Shown: positions 2,584 to 8,790 of the stretch, piece by piece
Layout: the number at the start of each line of letters is the position of its first letter
How positions within the stretch are numbered: the first letter of the stretch is position 1
Source: Myxococcales bacterium
Lineage (GTDB): Bacteria; Myxococcota_A; UBA9160; SMWR01
Assembly (NCBI GenBank): GCA_022571825.1
Contig: JACZXC010000071.1
Span: forward strand, 1-10,106
Direction: 5' to 3'
DNA: 10,106 nucleotides
Notes under the pieces: generated by a model
Databases searched by the model: none
What the model saw: the letters and a program-made list of their open reading frames with translations, nothing else
Told to the model about the DNA's origin: nothing
Translations under genes and position numbers: made by a program

Positions 2584-3474
2584 TCAGGTGAATTTCTTCA
2601 GGAGGCCGGCGAAGACGTCCACGATCGAGCCTCCGATCGGAACGCCGCGGCTTGGTCGAATCTCCCGGGCGAGGCGCATTCGCGCAAATTCGGCCTCGGA
2701 CCGGGGGTCGACCCGCGGGCGGGACGCCTGGCGCAACTGCGGTGACATTTTGCCCCCGCTCAGGACGAAGCCCGCGATCTGCTCGAGTTCGTCGGCGTCG
2801 AGCCAGGTGCCATGACTGGAACAGCGGTCGATGATGACGCCGGAAGACCTCCGAAAATTGCGGCGCTGCATGAATCCGTCGCAGACGGGACACTTCCGAT
2901 ACTGGACGCGCTGAGCGGCCGGATTCGAACCGGTCACGCGAGGCTTGAGGGCGGCGAGCTGCGCCGGATCGGCGTTTCGGCGCGCGTCGATAGCGCGGCT
3001 CACCAGCAGATCGAAGCTGTCATCGGGGATCCAGAGGCCGTTGCACTCCCGACACTCGTTCAGGCCGATGCCCCCCACCTGGCGAGCCGGCATCAGCACG
3101 GTGCAAACGGGGCAGGGGAGCTCGTAGCTTTCGACCTGCACCTGTTGGGGCCGGAAGCCCACGCCGCAGGCCGTGCAGAAACGCGAGTCTTCTTGGTTGC
3201 GTCCGTAGCACTCGGGACAGATGAGACTGAGGTTCCCGGGATCGCGGACGATCGCCGATCCGCAGTAGTCGCAGGCCTCGACATCCGGGGAAATCAGGGC
3301 ACCGCATGCGGCGCAGCGGCGTACCGCGGCGTCTACGGCCTCGTGGGGATCGTTCTCGACGGTCTCGCCACAGCGACACGGGAACGACTTCGCGACGATG
3401 TCCGAAACGTCGTACTGGGTGTGGCAGTTCGCGCAGACGACAAGACGCACGACCCGGGCCCTCCCCCCGCGCAA
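2584..3474 (-). CDS. Multi-zinc-ribbon protein: three N-terminal CxxC...CxxC ribbons plus two TFIIB-type zinc-ribbon (zf-TFIIB/PF13453-like) domains; YdjG-like
   Basis: In the 296-aa ORF the track start at 3474 is TTG. A GTG at 3450 preceded by GGGGGGAGGG with 8-nt spacing is the more likely start. The N-terminal motifs are CANCHTQYDVSD...CRCGETV, CAACGALISPDVEACDYCG and CPECYGRNQEDSRFCTACG. Two copies of CPVC....M.......CxxCxGxW(L/I)DxDE(L) follow: LPCPVCTVLMPARQVGGIGLNECRECNGLWIPDDSFDLL and CPVCDGFMQRRNFRRSSGVIIDRCSSHGTWLDADELEQI. The stop lies only 23 nt upstream of the SPFH gene start, so the two are likely co-transcribed. Confidence 0.8.
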   Translation of the reverse strand: MRGGRARVVRLVVCANCHTQYDVSDIVAKSFPCRCGETVENDPHEAVDAAVRRCAACGALISPDVEACDYCGSAIVRDPGNLSLICPECYGRNQEDSRFCTACGVGFRPQQVQVESYELPCPVCTVLMPARQVGGIGLNECRECNGLWIPDDSFDLLVSRAIDARRNADPAQLAALKPRVTGSNPAAQRVQYRKCPVCDGFMQRRNFRRSSGVIIDRCSSHGTWLDADELEQIAGFVLSGGKMSPQLRQASRPRVDPRSEAEFARMRLAREIRPSRGVPIGGSIVDVFAGLLKKFT

Positions 3475-3626
3475 GGGCGCGTGTGGGGGTCATCGGGAGG
3501 TCTGCGCGGCGACTTTACGCGGGAGGGTTGCTCGATGTGCGAGGGGGATGGGCCCCGATTCGAGATTGGAAAGACGCTTCGCCGCATCTGGGGGCCTTCC
3601 CCGCCCCACGCAACGCCACAGCGGGG

Positions 3627-4454
3627 TTAGCGGGCGCCGAGGCGGTCGCCGCAGTGCTTGCAGAAACGCGCGTCTTCGGCGTGCCCTTCGCTGAGACAAC
3701 TCGGACAGGCGCGGGTGGTCACGGGTCGCCGGACCGAGTGGACGAGCTCGGCGGAAACGATGCCCGTGGGTACGGCGATAATGCTGTAGCCCATGATCAT
3801 GACCAGGGCCGCGATCATTTGTCCGGGCACGGTCTGGGGCGCGATGTCTCCGTAGCCCACCGTGGTCATGGTCACGATGGCCCAGTAGACGGAGATCGGA
3901 ATGTTGGTGAAGCCGTTCTCGGGTCCCTCCACGATGTACATGACCGCGCCCATGATCACCGACATCACGAGGACCGTGCCGAGAAAGATGATCACTTTGG
4001 GGGCGCTGCTCCGCAGCGCCGAGACCAGGATATTGGCCTCGCCGAGATAGCGGACCAGCTTGAACACTCGAAAAATGCGAAGCAGACGGAGTGCGCGGAT
4101 CACCAGGAGAGAATGGGAGCCGGGCAGGATCAGGCTCACGTAGCTGGGAAGAACGGCCAGGAGATCGACCATGCCATAGAAGCTGCGGGCATAGCGCCCG
4201 GGCTTGCGAACGCATGCGAGGCGCACGGCGTACTCGACCGTGAAGACAATGGTGATGACCCACTCGAAGGCGTGAAGCCACGGCCCGTAGTCATCCACGA
4301 TGTCGGACACGCTTTCCAGCATGACCGCGAGCACGCTCAGCAGAATCACGATCAGTAACGCGACGTCGAAGGCCTTGCCCGCCGGAGTATCGGCTTCGAA
4401 GATGACGATCCGGATGCGCTCGCGGATCTGCCCGGGTTCGCTTGCTGCGGTCAC
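3627..4454 (-). CDS. Voltage-gated-type (6TM) potassium channel with a C-terminal zinc ribbon
   Basis: A 275-aa ORF with a GTG start at 4454. Hydrophobic segments S1-S6 are present. The S4 voltage-sensor-like segment has Arg at every third position (IRALRLLRIFRVFKLVRY). The K+ selectivity filter is TTVGYGD. The C-terminus RACPSCLSEGHAEDARFCKHCG is a CxxC-(x14)-CxxC zinc ribbon in place of the usual RCK or tetramerisation domain. Confidence 0.85.
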   Translation of the reverse strand: MTAASEPGQIRERIRIVIFEADTPAGKAFDVALLIVILLSVLAVMLESVSDIVDDYGPWLHAFEWVITIVFTVEYAVRLACVRKPGRYARSFYGMVDLLAVLPSYVSLILPGSHSLLVIRALRLLRIFRVFKLVRYLGEANILVSALRSSAPKVIIFLGTVLVMSVIMGAVMYIVEGPENGFTNIPISVYWAIVTMTTVGYGDIAPQTVPGQMIAALVMIMGYSIIAVPTGIVSAELVHSVRRPVTTRACPSCLSEGHAEDARFCKHCGDRLGAR

Positions 4455-4581: not shown

Positions 4582-5577
4582 ATGCGGGCAATCTTGTTCG
4601 ACCGACCGGGGCGACCGCTGCGGGAAGCCGATCTCCCCGAGCCCGTCCCGCAACCGGGTCAAGTGCGGGTTCGCGTGCACGCCTGCGGTGTATGCCGAAC
4701 CGATCTCCACGTGGTCGACGGTGAGCTCCCGGACCCCAAGCTGCCTCTCGTGCTCGGTCATCAGATCGTGGGACGGGTCGAGGCGGTGGGCCCCGACGCC
4801 GAGGGCTTTGCCATCGGCGACCGGATCGGTGTGCCCTGGCTGGGCGGAAGCTGCGGTGCGTGTCGCTTCTGTTCGACCGGCTGCGAGAATCTGTGCGACG
4901 CCGCGCGCTACACCGGATACCAGATCGATGGCGGTTTCGCCGACTTCTGCACCGCAGACCCGCGTTTCTGCTTTCCCATTCCCGAGCGTTATTCGGACCT
5001 CGATGCGGCCCCGCTTCTCTGCGCGGGTCTGATCGGGTACCGGGCACTGCGGATGACGGGCGACGCCGAGCGACTGGGCTTCTACGGATTCGGGGCATCG
5101 GCGCATATCCTCATCCAGGTCGCGCGATTCGAAGGTCGCGAGGTCTATGTCTTCACCCGGCCCGGGGATGCGGCAGCCCAGCGGTTCGCAGAAGAGCTGG
5201 GCGCGGCGTGGGTCGGAGGCTCGGATCGGGTGCCTCCGGATCCGCTCGACGCCGCGATCGTGTTCGCGCCGGTCGGCGGACTGGTGCCCGCCGCGCTGCG
5301 CGCCGTGAGGAAGGCGGGCGTGGTCGTCTGCGCGGGAATCCACATGAGTGAGATCCCCGCTTTCCCCTACTCGATTCTCTGGGGTGAGCGGGTACTCCGG
5401 TCGGTTGCGAACGTCACGCGCCGCGATGGCGAGGAGTTTCTCGCCCTGGCGCCGAAAGTTCCAGTCCGAACGGAAATTCACCGCTACTCCCTCGACCAGG
5501 CGCCGCGCGCCCTCAGCGACCTGCGAGAGGGGTGCTTCACCGGCGCAGCGGTGGTAGCGGTCCGACCGGGGGACTGA
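4582..5577 (+). CDS. Zinc-dependent alcohol dehydrogenase (MDR superfamily)
   Basis: The ATG at 4582 is preceded by GGGAGGG with a 4-nt spacer. The 331-aa product has catalytic-Zn motifs CGVCRTDLH and GHQIVGRV. The structural-Zn motif is GGSCGACRFCSTGCENLC. A Rossmann-like GFYGFGASAHI precedes the NAD-binding region. The 4300..5577 track ORF has an implausible 94-aa N-terminal extension that overlaps the opposite-strand channel gene. Confidence 0.85.
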   Translation: MRAILFDRPGRPLREADLPEPVPQPGQVRVRVHACGVCRTDLHVVDGELPDPKLPLVLGHQIVGRVEAVGPDAEGFAIGDRIGVPWLGGSCGACRFCSTGCENLCDAARYTGYQIDGGFADFCTADPRFCFPIPERYSDLDAAPLLCAGLIGYRALRMTGDAERLGFYGFGASAHILIQVARFEGREVYVFTRPGDAAAQRFAEELGAAWVGGSDRVPPDPLDAAIVFAPVGGLVPAALRAVRKAGVVVCAGIHMSEIPAFPYSILWGERVLRSVANVTRRDGEEFLALAPKVPVRTEIHRYSLDQAPRALSDLREGCFTGAAVVAVRPGD

Positions 5578-5588
5578 CCATGCGTCTC

Positions 5589-5630
5589 CCGGGAACGACC
5601 GCCGCGAAACCTTTGGTTCCCCGGTGTGTT
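5589..5630 (+). terminator. Possible intrinsic terminator downstream of the ADH gene
   Basis: An inverted repeat CCGGGAAC...GTTCCCCGG has an ~8-bp stem with one bulge and a 19-nt loop. It is followed by TGTGTT, 12 nt after the ADH stop. The U-tract is weak, as is common in high-GC genomes. Confidence 0.35.
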
Positions 5631-5668
5631 CGACTCCACAGCGGAATGGGCCGCTCGGGAGAAAACTC

Positions 5669-6220
5669 ATGAAACGGACTGGGATTCTGGCACTGGCGAT
5701 GAGCTTGGCGTGGGCACCCGCCGCCACCGCGGTGGCGGGCGAGGAAGACGCTCTCAACCGGGCGGGCGATCGGATCGAGCGCCACCTCGATCGCCGGGGA
5801 GATCGCATCGAAGACCGACTCGATCGCCGAGGTGATCGCATCGATCGCCCCCTCGATCGTCGGGGAGATCGCATCAAAGACCGACTCGATCGCCGGGGCG
5901 ACCGCATCGATCACCGGCTGGATCGCCGGGGCGATCGCATCGATGCGCGTCTCGACCGCGCCTCCGGCCGAGCCGCCGAGGCCGGGAACGATGGGCTCGC
6001 GACGTGGCTGGATCGTCGGGGAGATCGCATCGAAGACCGACTCGATCGCCGAGGCGACCGCATCGATCACCAGTTGGACCGCCGAGGCGACCGCATCGAT
6101 CACCAGTTGGACCGCCGGGGCGACCGCATCGATCACCGGCTGGATCGCCGGGGAGACCGCATCAATCGTTGGCTGGATGGGCGGGGCGATCGCGCCCGCA
6201 GGGGCGGTGGCCACCGCTGA
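5669..6220 (+). CDS. Secreted repeat protein: signal peptide followed by ~11-12 tandem 11-residue repeats (L/I)DRRGDRI(E/D)xR carrying ~11 RGD motifs
   Basis: The ATG at 5669 is preceded by GGGAGA. The N-terminus MKRTGILALAMSLAWAPAATAVAGEE has an n-region (KR), a hydrophobic core and an AxA-type cleavage site. The rest is GDRIEDRLDRR-type repeats in two blocks separated by a non-repeat spacer (ASGRAAEAGNDGLATW). The frame is chosen on the signal peptide. Codon third-position GC in this frame is lower than in two alternative frames; see findings. Confidence 0.55.
   Translation: MKRTGILALAMSLAWAPAATAVAGEEDALNRAGDRIERHLDRRGDRIEDRLDRRGDRIDRPLDRRGDRIKDRLDRRGDRIDHRLDRRGDRIDARLDRASGRAAEAGNDGLATWLDRRGDRIEDRLDRRGDRIDHQLDRRGDRIDHQLDRRGDRIDHRLDRRGDRINRWLDGRGDRARRGGGHR
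5760..6185. repeat. Imperfect 33-bp tandem repeat array of ~12 units in two blocks, consensus ctcgatcgccggggagatcgcatcgaagaccga, rich in CGATCG/GATC palindromes
   Basis: Direct inspection shows the 33-mer recurring head-to-tail over 5760..5940 and 6004..6185, with point variants (gag/gcg, gaagac/caccgg/caccag). It encodes the 11-aa protein repeat of the overlapping CDS. Confidence 0.8.
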
Positions 6221-6319
6221 GCCGCGCCCGTCGCCCCCGCTGCCCTGAGCGCACCCGTGAGGCGTGGCTCGACGACCCACGCGCTTCGCGACGAATCCGC
6301 GCGCTAGAATCCCTGTGTC

Positions 6320-7768
6320 ATGGGCCGATCCGAAATGCTTCGTCCGATTGGACCCGCGGTCTTCGAGCTCCCGCGCGACTTTCGTCCCGGCATGCGGGTT
6401 CCGGTGCGGATTTACGGTACAGAGAAGCTGGTGGCCGAAATGGACCCCGAGGTCTTCCGGCAGGCCGCGAACGTCGCCACCCTGCCGGGCATCGTCGAAG
6501 CCAGCTTCTGCATGCCCGACGCGCACCGGGGCTATGGATTCCCGATCGGCGGGGTTGCCGCCATCGATGCCGAGACGGGGGTGATCTCGCCCGGCGGGAT
6601 CGGCTTCGACATCAACTGCGGCATGCGGCTCGTGCGCACCGACCTGCGCTGGCCAGAGGTTCAGCCACGCCTGCGCGAACTCGTCGATGCCCTGGCGGAT
6701 CGCGTGCCGGCGGGAGTGGGTTCCCGAGGCTTCGTGCGGGTGACCCGCGACGAGTTCCGCGAGCTGCTGGAAGGAGGCGCGGGCTGGGCGGTCGCCCGGG
6801 GGTACGGGACCGAAGCGGACCTGGAGACGACCGAGGAGAAGGGCTGCTTCGAGAGCGCCGACCCGGCGTGCGTAAGCGAGCGGGCCATCGAGCGGGGTCA
6901 ACGACAGATCGGCACCCTCGGCTCGGGAAACCACTACCTGGAAATCCAGGTGCTTCGGCCCGATGGAATCTTCGATGCAAGGCTCGCGAAGGCTTTCGGC
7001 CTTTCGCTCCCGGAGCAGGTCGTCGTGATGTTTCACTGCGGCAGCCGGGGATTTGGACATCAGGTAGCGACGGATTACCTGCGATCGTTTCGCCGGAGCA
7101 TGCCGAAGGAGTACGGACTCGACCGCGAGCTGGCGTGTGCCCCCTTTGCATCCCCCGATGGCCGCGACTATTACGGCGCGATGTGCTGCGCCGCCAACAT
7201 GTCTTTCGCGAACCGTCAGGTGATCCTTCACCGCATCCGCGAGGTCTTCTCCGATGTGTTTGGTCGCGATCCCGACGCGCTGGGGATCCGGAACGTCTAC
7301 GACGTGGCCCACAACACTGCGAAGCTGGAGCGCATCGAGCTCGGCGGATGCGAACGCACGCTGCTGGTCCATCGCAAGGGCTCTACCCGTGCGCTTCCGC
7401 CGGGCCATCCGGAGCTTCCGCCCGTGTATCGCCAGACGGGCCAACCGGTCATCATCGGTGGCAGCATGGAGACCGGTTCCTACGTCCTGGCGGGTGTGGC
7501 CAGTGGGATTGCCAGCTTCTACAGCAGCGCCCACGGAAGCGGGCGGAGGATGAGCCGCACCCAGGCCCGCAAGCTGGTGCGGGGCCGGGAGCTTCGGGAG
7601 CGCATGGCGAGACGGGGAATCTGGGTCCGCGCCGCCTCCGATCGCGGCCTCGCCGAGGAGGCGGCCATCGCCTACAAGGATGTCGATGAGGTGGCCGAGG
7701 CCAGCGAGATCGCCGGGCTGTCGCGACGCGTGGCCCATCTGATTCCGGTCGGAAACGTGAAGGGATGA
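6320..7768 (+). CDS. rtcB: RNA-splicing ligase RtcB (3'-phosphate/5'-hydroxyl RNA ligase), archaeal/Thermus-type
   Basis: The 482-aa product aligns by eye along its whole length with Pyrococcus RtcB. Shared segments include GMRVPVRIY, NVATLPGIVEASFCMPDAHRGYGFPIGGVAAID, GVISPGGIGFDINCG, GSGNHYLEIQV, HCGSRGFGHQVATDYL, YDVAHNTAK, HRKGSTRALPPGH, GQPVIIGGSMETGSY and YKDVDEV. The start is the ATG at 6320 or 6335. Confidence 0.95.
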   Translation: MGRSEMLRPIGPAVFELPRDFRPGMRVPVRIYGTEKLVAEMDPEVFRQAANVATLPGIVEASFCMPDAHRGYGFPIGGVAAIDAETGVISPGGIGFDINCGMRLVRTDLRWPEVQPRLRELVDALADRVPAGVGSRGFVRVTRDEFRELLEGGAGWAVARGYGTEADLETTEEKGCFESADPACVSERAIERGQRQIGTLGSGNHYLEIQVLRPDGIFDARLAKAFGLSLPEQVVVMFHCGSRGFGHQVATDYLRSFRRSMPKEYGLDRELACAPFASPDGRDYYGAMCCAANMSFANRQVILHRIREVFSDVFGRDPDALGIRNVYDVAHNTAKLERIELGGCERTLLVHRKGSTRALPPGHPELPPVYRQTGQPVIIGGSMETGSYVLAGVASGIASFYSSAHGSGRRMSRTQARKLVRGRELRERMARRGIWVRAASDRGLAEEAAIAYKDVDEVAEASEIAGLSRRVAHLIPVGNVKG

Positions 7769-8790
7769 CTCGAGGCGCGCCTCGCGGGAGCGGGGACCTG
7801 ACCAAACGGACGCTCCCGACGGGGAAACTTCCCGCCGCGCTGCTCGGGGAGCTTCTGGCCTCGGGTCCGCCCCTGCCCGACGAGGTTCTTCTGGGGCCGA
7901 GGGTTGGAGAGGACGCCTGTGCGATCCGGGTGAAGTCCGGGGTGCTCGTGGCGGCCACCGATCCCATCACCCTCACCGGCGGCGACGTTGGAGGACACGC
8001 CGTGGTGATCAATGCCAATGACGTCGCGGTCCTGGGCGTGCGCCCCCGTTGGTTCCTCGCGTGCGTATTGATGCCACCCACCGCCACCGAGGCCGACATC
8101 CGCGTCCTGTTCGCGGACACGCGTACCGCCCTGGAGAGTGTCGGCGCCGCCCTCGTGGGAGGACACACGGAGGTGACGGAGGCCGTCAATCAACCGGTCG
8201 TCGTGGGACAGATGTTGGGACTGCGTGAGGACGGACACTTCGTTCCGACCCGGGGGATGGGGGAGACCGACGCGGTACTTCAGGTCGGTCTCGCGCCGGT
8301 GGAAGGGGCCGCTGTACTCGCCCGAGAAGCCGACTTCGACGTGCCGCCGGATATGCTGGCCCGGGCCCGTGACGCGCTGCGCGATCCGGGCATCAGCATC
8401 GTGAAGGCGGCGCTGCGGGCCGCCGAGCTGGGGGCAACCGCGCTCCACGATCCCACCGAGGGTGGACTCTCCGCCGGCCTGCATGAACTGGCCGACGCAT
8501 CCGGGGTGGCATTGTGTATCGATGCCGATGCGGTCCTGTGGTTCCCGAGTGGTCTCGCCGTGTGCGCCGCGCTGGGGGCCGATCCCTGGGGTGTGCTTGC
8601 CTCCGGGACGCTGCTGGCCGCCTTTCCCGGGTCGTCCGCCGAGGAGATACTTGCCATCCTGGTAGGGGAGGGGTTCCCGGTCGCGATCATCGCCCGCGCC
8701 GAGCGGGGAAACGGCGTGCGGCTGGCCGATGGCTCGCCGCTTCGACGTTACGAGCGCGACGAGGTCTCGCGGGTGCTGGACACCGCTTGA
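7765..8790 (+). CDS. AIR-synthase-related (PurM-like superfamily) protein, HypE-like but lacking the HypE C-terminal PRIC motif
   Basis: The ATG at 7765 overlaps the rtcB stop (ATGA, 7765..7768). The product (KLPAALLGELL...DACAIRVKSGVLVAATDPITLTGGDVGGHAVVINANDVAVLGVRPRWF...GGHTEVTEAV...) matches the HypE/PurM N-domain pattern TD..I.P..F.GG.IG..A...ANDVAV.GA.PR. A C-terminal AIRS_C-like domain is present. There is no terminal Cys and no SelD-type N-terminal Cys/Sec. Confidence 0.75.
   Translation: MTRGAPRGSGDLTKRTLPTGKLPAALLGELLASGPPLPDEVLLGPRVGEDACAIRVKSGVLVAATDPITLTGGDVGGHAVVINANDVAVLGVRPRWFLACVLMPPTATEADIRVLFADTRTALESVGAALVGGHTEVTEAVNQPVVVGQMLGLREDGHFVPTRGMGETDAVLQVGLAPVEGAAVLAREADFDVPPDMLARARDALRDPGISIVKAALRAAELGATALHDPTEGGLSAGLHELADASGVALCIDADAVLWFPSGLAVCAALGADPWGVLASGTLLAAFPGSSAEEILAILVGEGFPVAIIARAERGNGVRLADGSPLRRYERDEVSRVLDTA

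Follow-up and report, generated by a model that had tools for sequence, protein, structure and literature searches.

A predicted hairpin-type repeat protein of a Myxococcales bacterium and the link of its family to an extracytoplasmic function sigma factor

The stretch of 10,106 nucleotides from Myxococcales contig JACZXC010000071.1 that was analysed here (the window) carries an open reading frame (ORF) at positions 5669-6220 of the forward strand, which starts with ATG and encodes 183 amino acids (aa) followed by a TGA stop. Its product combines a predicted signal peptide with two arrays of an 11-residue repeat rich in Asp and Arg, and belongs to a family whose genes are frequently followed by a gene for a sigma factor of the extracytoplasmic function (ECF) type and preceded by a recurring promoter motif. 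We propose that the protein is a Sec-exported, periplasmic helical hairpin of 11-mers and the lead target of the ECF sigma group NF006550, acting as an envelope-stress effector in the manner of CpxP, Spy and ZraP; we put the probability of this reading at about 55%. The ECF link and the promoter motif are results at the level of the family. They were absent from an earlier note made from the letters of the window alone (the original prediction) and are the main new result of this analysis.

Linkage of the repeat family to an ECF sigma factor cluster

A word-indexed search returned 217 homologues of the window protein, with phmmer E-values down to 2 × 10−35. All were unnamed or annotated as 'hypothetical', except for one with a doubtful 'RcnB' label. 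Scanning 1.84 billion representatives with the family profile in HMMER identified 765 clusters at 50% identity (E ≤ 10−3), 387 of them at E ≤ 10−10. An exact look-up of the 183-aa protein gave no matching record, strings of the repeat peptide occurred in no paper of the searched literature library, and neither Pfam nor NCBIfam has a model for the family, the top match being Apolipoprotein (PF01442) at 33 bits versus a cut-off of 90. Sub-threshold matches in Pfam, NCBIfam and the PDB to Apolipoprotein, phasin and a coiled-coil protein were rejected as evidence of membership because they are driven by composition.

To survey the carriers, a nine-sequence alignment was used as the query against one genome per species, which yielded 80 loci. 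The carriers include Lysobacterales (Arenimonas, Pseudoxanthomonas, Luteimonas, Thermomonas and Silanimonas), Woeseiaceae, Cellvibrionales, Methylophaga and Cycloclasticus, as well as the sulfur oxidisers Thiogranum, Thioalkalivibrio and Thiohalobacter. The family was also found in Methylophilaceae, Gallionellaceae/Sideroxydans, Zetaproteobacteria, Desulfobulbus, Nitrospinota, Myxococcota and Binatia. All carriers are environmental, diderm (Gram-negative) lineages that live freely in sediment, soil or water. One metagenome-assembled genome (MAG) labelled Gemmatimonadaceae (L062) has a repeat protein and cluster resembling those of Pseudoxanthomonas; because this contig may be mis-binned, Gemmatimonadota was not counted as a carrier phylum.

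We clustered the ORFs neighbouring the repeat gene and counted linkage on those 71 species loci whose sequence extends 1.5 kb or more downstream. Conservation across phyla is limited to three partners, which always lie downstream on the same strand. The repeat gene comes first, followed by the ECF sigma gene, a gene for a small membrane protein that we regard as a putative anti-sigma factor, and a DUF3106 gene. The sigma gene directly follows the repeat gene, on the same strand, in 42 of the 71 loci, and 41 of these 42 have the DUF3106 gene too. For each of the 47 sigma proteins, NF006550 (PRK09047) of NCBIfam is the sole family matched at E ≤ 10−40. The putative anti-sigma factor is a single-pass membrane protein with a weak DUF3619/anti-sigma match and an acidic periplasmic tail, and the DUF3106 partner is a basic protein bearing a signal peptide. 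Pfam labels on independently called genes from a public collection give the same arrangement. About 40% of family members are unlinked to the sigma cluster, so that this position is frequent, not obligatory. The main text of the ECF re-classification paper does not mention DUF3106- or DUF3619-type domains. In Lysobacterales (L003, L004, L005 and others) the four-gene cluster sits between the transhydrogenase genes pntB and pntAA; the pnt genes were rejected as part of the module, since this flanking arrangement is confined to Lysobacterales (18 loci).

The repeat family is linked to this module regulatorily as well as physically. A paired short-word search identified TGTCAACC-N~15-GCGTT 5′ of the repeat gene in 33 of the 45 linked loci; the opposite strand of these regions contained it only as its own mirror image. 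In its strict form, GTCAAC-N14-18-CGT[TC], the motif lies 34-94 nt 5′ of the start in 33/48 linked and 34/41 unlinked copies. The spacer is 16 nt in nearly all of them, and the distance to the start is mostly 55-95 nt. The motif is rare, with 87 occurrences on both strands of 1.57 Mb, most of them upstream of the repeat gene. It recurs in independent metagenome loci, with one soil clade having the co-varying form GTAAAC-N16-CGTC. A relaxed promoter pattern is found 5′ of 74 of the 121 family genes, compared with 1.4% of control windows.

Hallmarks of ECF promoters are a −35 element that contains AAC and a −10 element that contains CGT, and autoregulation is common among ECF sigma genes. The GTCAAC motif lies directly 5′ of the sigma gene itself in five loci (L003/L009, L004, L011, L020 and L088). 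Because the motif contains both elements and such autoregulation is common, we infer that GTCAAC-N16-CGTT is the promoter that the NF006550 sigma factor itself recognises, with the repeat protein as the sigma factor's most consistent target irrespective of gene adjacency. Further GTCAAC-N16-CGTT sites lie 5′ of a DUF3106 gene and of genes for a small Gly-rich lipoprotein (116 aa), a 500-aa lipoprotein and a 286-aa secreted protein. Judging by these sites, the two lipoproteins and the secreted protein are further candidates for the ECF regulon. Genes other than the repeat gene that carry the motif were seen at L008, L056 and L063 (on the minus strand, at some 2-3 kb distance from the repeat gene), at L107, L109, L112 and L113, and at L091 and L092.

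Repeat architecture and predicted fold

The features of the window copy and its upstream region are listed below, with the basis of each assignment.

5604-5611 and 5625-5630, forward strand: putative variant ECF-type promoter, GCGAAACC, 13 nt, TGTGTT, at −65 to −39 from the start
5657-5661, forward strand: Shine-Dalgarno-like GGGAG, 7 nt 5′ of the ATG (direct sequence reading)
5669-6220, forward strand: complete coding sequence of the repeat protein, 183 aa plus stop (ORF list, translation, 217 homologues, codon-position substitutions)
5669-5737, forward strand: predicted signal peptide, residues 1-23, predicted cleavage AVA/GEED (sequence features and N-termini of homologues)
5753-5950, forward strand: N-terminal arm, six 11-mers, residues 29-94, LDRRGDRIDxR (register, AlphaFold2, periodicity 3.68)
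5951-6007, forward strand: central break and predicted hairpin turn, residues 95-113, LDRASGRAAEAGNDGLATW (family-conserved spacing, AlphaFold2 turn)
6008-6205, forward strand: C-terminal arm, six 11-mers, residues 114-179 (register, AlphaFold2, Tandem Repeats Finder)
6206-6220, forward strand: short basic tail GGHR and TGA stop (translation; basic tails are common among homologues)

The GC-rich 33-bp repeat leaves all six frames open. Long ORFs overlap the gene in other frames and on the minus strand, and a cluster of 'antisense ORFs' recurs across loci, which would fit the view that the ORF is an artefact of the open repeat, in the wrong frame or on the wrong strand, and not a real gene. The original prediction had itself raised the opposite strand and the other frames as a concern. 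Against this, codon positions 1, 2 and 3 take 222, 160 and 731 substitutions in the frame of the ORF, as counted in 23 pairs of equal-length homologous genes with 75-99% nucleotide identity, and the protein, including its signal peptide, is conserved across genomes of roughly 35-70% GC. Because of this excess at third positions and the conservation of the protein over such a range of base composition, the 5669-6220 frame is taken as coding. A ribosome-binding site is present, the genes of the family keep a conserved operon position and have a promoter motif, and we consider an artefact extremely improbable.

Residues 1-23, MKRTGILALAMSLAWAPAATAVA, consist of a basic n-region and an uncharged h-region, with AVA before G24. 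Equivalent segments, with Lys or Arg followed by a hydrophobic stretch and mostly with an AxA-like end, are found in the homologues that were aligned or listed. These features, and their presence in all inspected homologues, support the assignment of the window protein to the Sec-exported type. Read from its sequence, the protein is not a lipoprotein, as the signal segment contains no Cys, and it shares with the family an N-terminal Sec-type signal peptide that lacks a lipobox by the same feature-based reading.

The mature part of the protein is 30% Arg and 22% Asp. It contains twelve copies of the family 11-mer, L1 D2 x [RK]4 G5 D6 R7 I8 [DEN]9 x R11, and one 19-residue break between arms of 6(+1) and 6 repeats. 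An exported protein with about twelve tandem 11-mers had been predicted, and both the export features and the count of 6+6 repeats bear this out. The array is not continuous as had been supposed, however: the 19-residue centre displaces the repeat phase by 8 residues, a register break that leaves two arrays. The estimate of about eleven RGD (Arg-Gly-Asp) motifs proved exact, with 11 RGD and 12 GDR motifs spaced 11 residues apart inside each arm. At the DNA level, Tandem Repeats Finder reported a 33-bp period at 5764-6163 (12.4 copies), a 66-bp period at 5764-6193 and, in the C-terminal arm, a 33-bp period at 6006-6193 (5.7 copies, 83% matches). The window protein is 12% Gly with a grand average of hydropathy (GRAVY) of −1.85; the family medians are about 8% Gly, a GRAVY of about −1.9 and an isoelectric point (pI) of 11.2.

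With 6+6 repeats the window protein stands at the long end of its family. The usual member has 105-115 aa and consists of a signal peptide, three repeats, the break LDRRADRAAxxGxxxLAxRLD and three more repeats. Across the family, the repeat profile is L1 (85%), D2 (93%), x3, R or K4 (57% and 30%), G5 (87%), D6 (75%), R7 (94%), I/V/A8, D/E/N9, x10 and R11 (79%). The break follows the looser family pattern LDRxxxRAxxxGxxxLAxxLD. In most members its spacing is 19 residues, or 19 plus multiples of 11, and D96, G106 and L114 vary little or not at all among the aligned sequences. Arm length ranges from two to seven repeats; among 202 distinct family proteins, 91 have arms of equal repeat number and 174 have arms that differ by at most one repeat, and the repeat numbers of the two arms correlate (Spearman 0.48, p = 6 × 10−13).

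Some members depart from this plan. In three proteins of 217-285 aa (L044, L057 and L065, the last from a Myxococcota MAG) the arm-turn-arm unit is tandemly duplicated, giving two predicted hairpins. The C-terminal half of L098/L099 contains about ten degenerate 11-mers (HDRRDERADRR) that are more charged and lack the usual Gly and Ile. In a 300-aa protein from an ENA contig (P0059), a repeat-protein N-terminus with five repeats and the turn runs into an aldehyde dehydrogenase (PF00171), of which the C-terminal half is present; this is probably a frameshift or assembly chimera and not a real fusion.

For the window protein, AlphaFold2 predicted two helices, residues 4-104 and 108-178, joined by a turn at 105-107 (G106-N-D), with a mean predicted local distance difference test score (pLDDT) of 86; the values were 83-93 over the first helix and about 90 over the second. 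For a 108-aa member from Arenimonas (P0035), a run that drew on 48 sequences gave helices 24-65 and 69-107, with a pLDDT of 93-98 over the repeats and a predicted template modelling score of 0.63. Hydrophobic residues recur every 3.65-3.68 residues (= 11/3). The 11-residue periodicity and the helical character that had been read from the letters thus agree with both lines of evidence. The central turn is conserved and the arms are matched in length, and an antiparallel hairpin is therefore the favoured fold for the window protein. Such a hairpin would be expected to keep the repeat numbers of its arms similar, as is seen within one repeat in the large majority of members.

The family profile, placed on an 11/3 helical wheel, would give the order I8-L1-G5, D9-D2-D6, x10 and R3-R7-R11-R4. 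L1, G5 and I8 would then make a narrow seam that includes a small residue, with an Asp stripe (positions 2, 6 and 9) along one side and an Arg/Lys stripe (positions 3, 4, 7 and 11) along the other. When two arms pair antiparallel, each can set its acidic stripe against the other's basic one; the 6+6 rod of the window protein would span about 11 nm if helical. An amphipathic helix of the LEA-3, apolipoprotein or synuclein type, as originally suggested, does not fit this pattern, in which only L1 and I8 with G5 make up the seam. Other hendecad coiled coils and antiparallel hairpins, such as designed helix-loop-helix bundles, prefoldin arms and the periplasmic hairpin of PorM, are analogues in fold only (0-15% identity). 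None of them has the design of Asp and Arg stripes or the regulatory context of the repeat family.

The eleven RGD tripeptides had also suggested an adhesin or a mimic that binds host integrins, and their number in a protein of the exported type is what speaks for this idea. Integrin-binding RGDs sit on flexible loops. In the repeat protein, the helix that contains the tripeptide is predicted with confidence, and G5 belongs to the seam. Before Gly-Asp, 57% of family repeats have R and 30% have K, the share of R rises weakly with genomic GC (rho 0.35, p = 5 × 10−5), and usual members have two to three RGD and 1.5-3 KGD. The carriers (Woeseiaceae, Methylophilaceae, Gallionellaceae, Zetaproteobacteria, Nitrospinota, Lysobacterales and Myxococcota) are free-living, and beyond the Sec signal peptide the protein has no surface anchor or secretion-system signal. 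It thus lacks the exposed, flexible-loop RGD in a host-associated organism that marks RGD adhesins. Because R alternates with K, RGD lies within a helix and the carriers are environmental, we consider host mimicry very improbable; expansion of the repeat in a high-GC genome best accounts for the eleven RGDs. This removes an annotation as host mimic based on RGD count, which is tempting but unsupported.

The 33-bp repeats had further been expected to make the gene prone to changes in copy number. This finds partial support in the range of arm lengths across the family given above and in a near-identical metagenome contig. That contig, of 1.4 kb (JGI Ga0209980_10098636, L089), shares 98.3-99.7% nucleotide identity with window positions 5462-7043 and lacks 156 nt in frame, by which the turn and about four repeats are lost. 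The deletion junction falls inside a 19-nt stretch common to two near-identical repeat blocks. This deletion is either a real recombinant allele or a collapse in short-read assembly, and we lean towards a collapse, given that nearly all family members have the turn.

A proposed role in envelope stress and its alternatives

According to the reading that we favour, the repeat protein would be made when the envelope-signalling ECF module fires. It would cross via Sec, remain soluble in the periplasm and fold into a rod-like antiparallel two-helix coiled coil, whose arms would zip through complementary Asp and Arg/Lys stripes and present a periodic acid/base surface. In the periplasm it would bind or shield as an effector, take part in feedback as a partner of the sensor, or do both, with its basic stripe facing the acidic periplasmic tail of the anti-sigma factor or anionic envelope polymers. 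The acidic anti-sigma tail and the strongly basic DUF3106 protein are candidate partners for such a charge-striped rod.

CpxP, Spy and ZraP are periplasmic chaperones or binders that also serve as feedback partners of their sensor. Like them, the repeat protein is small, highly charged and of the Sec-exported type, is predicted to be all-helical and hairpin-like, and heads what may be an envelope-stress regulon. They are transcribed from the stress system's own promoter, and the promoter motif and operon suggest the same for the repeat family. The two differ in that CpxP, Spy and ZraP are regulated by two-component systems, whereas the repeat family is associated with an ECF sigma/anti-sigma pair. 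They also form a bent four-helix cradle, whereas the repeat protein is predicted to be a regular 11-residue rod of variable length.

Several points weigh against this proposal. The likeness to CpxP, Spy and ZraP rests on logic and not on homology, as LTXXQ/Metal_resist (PF07813/PF13801) is not among the Pfam matches listed for the window protein, and neither sequence nor profile searches of the PDB gave a related solved structure. AlphaFold2 can produce confident helices for highly charged repeats that fold only conditionally, and the hairpin is to that extent a prediction. The protein may also be released from the periplasm instead of being retained there. The searchable literature contained no experimental report on the NF006550 sigma group, DUF3106 or the repeat family. 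Finally, there is no ECF sigma gene within the window, and the canonical GTCAAC-N16-CGTT is absent from it, the best matrix score being 3.7 versus a training minimum of 14. A more relaxed pattern, AACC-N14-GNGTT, has one site in the whole window, at 5608-5630 (at −61), against 0.10 expected, and is weak evidence, having been shaped partly after viewing the window and its relatives. The same layout at the same distance is seen in the closest relatives, as GCGCAACC-N13-CGGGTT in L001 and L072 and as GCG[CA]AACC-N14-CGGTT in L065 and L098. Since the pattern was shaped after these sequences had been viewed, sigma dependence of the window copy is only plausible. A scan for sigma-70 promoters and intrinsic terminators around the repeat gene gave nothing useful.

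We also considered that the protein might be a protectant resembling hydrophilins or late embryogenesis abundant (LEA) proteins, which would be disordered and hydrophilic, turn helical upon water loss or crowding, and guard the envelope against desiccation or osmotic stress. The 11-residue periodicity, the Gly content and the low hydropathy are in line with this, and the reading also accommodates control by a sigma factor of the stress type. Apolipoproteins A-I, A-IV and E and group-3 LEA proteins share with the repeat protein a periodicity of 11 (or 22) residues, helicity and high charge. Weak sub-threshold matches to Pfam Apolipoprotein were found for the window protein and for 12 of 48 family members (E ≤ 0.01). 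The best PDB sequence match, apolipoprotein A-IV, was non-significant, and the PDB profile search did not return an apolipoprotein. No LEA model, LEA_4 (PF02987) included, matched the window protein at E ≤ 1. In contrast to apolipoproteins and LEA proteins, the hydrophobic face of the repeat protein takes up two of 11 residues plus Gly, there is no lipid-binding face and no Pro punctuation, and the hairpin turn is conserved. This turn, the matched arms and the seam with its conserved core Gly point to a defined hairpin, which AlphaFold2 predicted in the Arenimonas member at high confidence from only 48 sequences. The carriers are, moreover, mostly aquatic or sediment bacteria. A protectant of this kind, which would be partly compatible with an envelope-stress effector, appears unlikely.

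Alternatively, the protein could buffer or bind ions or polyanions in the periplasm, its Asp stripes taking up divalent metals or its Arg stripes binding lipopolysaccharide, phospholipid heads or polyphosphate. This is partly compatible with an envelope-stress effector. The extreme periodic segregation of charge and the high median pI of the family would suit such a role. In Lysobacterales members, position 10 and the turn (AxxHGH) often have His. Iron or sulfur oxidisers are numerous among the carriers of the family, and one JGI record (P0032) is labelled 'Ni/Co efflux regulator RcnB'. The RcnB domain (PF11776), however, is neither precomputed for P0032 nor matched by the window protein, and His is not conserved family-wide. 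No metal-transport genes are conserved nearby, where recurrence across phyla is confined to the genes for the sigma factor, the anti-sigma factor and DUF3106. We consider this reading quite unlikely.

A more specific form of the envelope-stress proposal would make the repeat protein a hitherto overlooked part of ECF signalling: a length-tunable, charge-striped periplasmic rod that binds the short acidic anti-sigma tail, the basic DUF3106 protein or both, and in this way sets or reports the envelope's state. Besides being the principal output of the uncharacterised, phylum-spanning ECF system, it would serve that system as co-sensor or feedback regulator. We consider this version rather unlikely.

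The window locus and the significance of the family

The window copy lies apart from the sigma cluster, between a gene for a Zn-dependent alcohol dehydrogenase and RtcB, and the window lacks the module of NF006550 (PRK09047), DUF3619-like anti-sigma factor and DUF3106. The gene set of the window comprises SPFH and potassium channel-like genes, both on the minus strand, the alcohol dehydrogenase gene, the repeat gene, RtcB, an AIR-synthase-related gene and GpsA. GpsA shares 70-72% identity with proteins from Myxococcales SG8_38 and Polyangiales MAGs, which makes an uncultured Myxococcota the probable source. An operon with RtcB as a feature of the family was rejected, as neither alcohol dehydrogenase nor RtcB was seen near the repeat gene in the 128 other family loci for which neighbours were clustered or listed; these neighbours are common only to the contig L089, which comes from the same population. 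The end of RtcB (6320-7768, forward strand) overlaps the start of the AIR-synthase-related gene (7765-8790, forward strand) by 4 nt (ATGA), which suggests translational coupling. The latter gene has HypE-, ThiL- and SelD-like matches, all far below cut-offs, and neither RtcA nor RtcR is found within the window. The SPFH/Band-7 protein carries a C-terminal GYF_2 domain, and the channel-like ORF resembles voltage-gated potassium channels. The ORFs at 1448-2560 and 3627-4454 (both minus strand), 23-736, 771-1451 and 2584-3630 comprise these two and several of 220-300 aa that have no Pfam or NCBIfam match.

For protein design, the repeat may be of interest as a clean natural case of an antiparallel coiled coil built on 11 residues, whose seam contains Gly and whose Asp and Arg residues are segregated into stripes. 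If the repeat protein is indeed a co-sensor, changes in repeat number would tune the reach or affinity of the rod. Beyond the window, this analysis gives a name, the LDxxGDRIxxR hairpin family, together with an architecture and a regulatory context to a family of hundreds of 50%-identity clusters that has no curated model and that ranges over Gamma-, Beta- and Zetaproteobacteria, Desulfobulbia, Nitrospinota, Myxococcota and Binatia. The uncharacterised NF006550 ECF group gains a predicted promoter, a hallmark target and further candidate members of its regulon, and the system is directly testable in cultured Lysobacterales, Cellvibrionales or methylotrophs.

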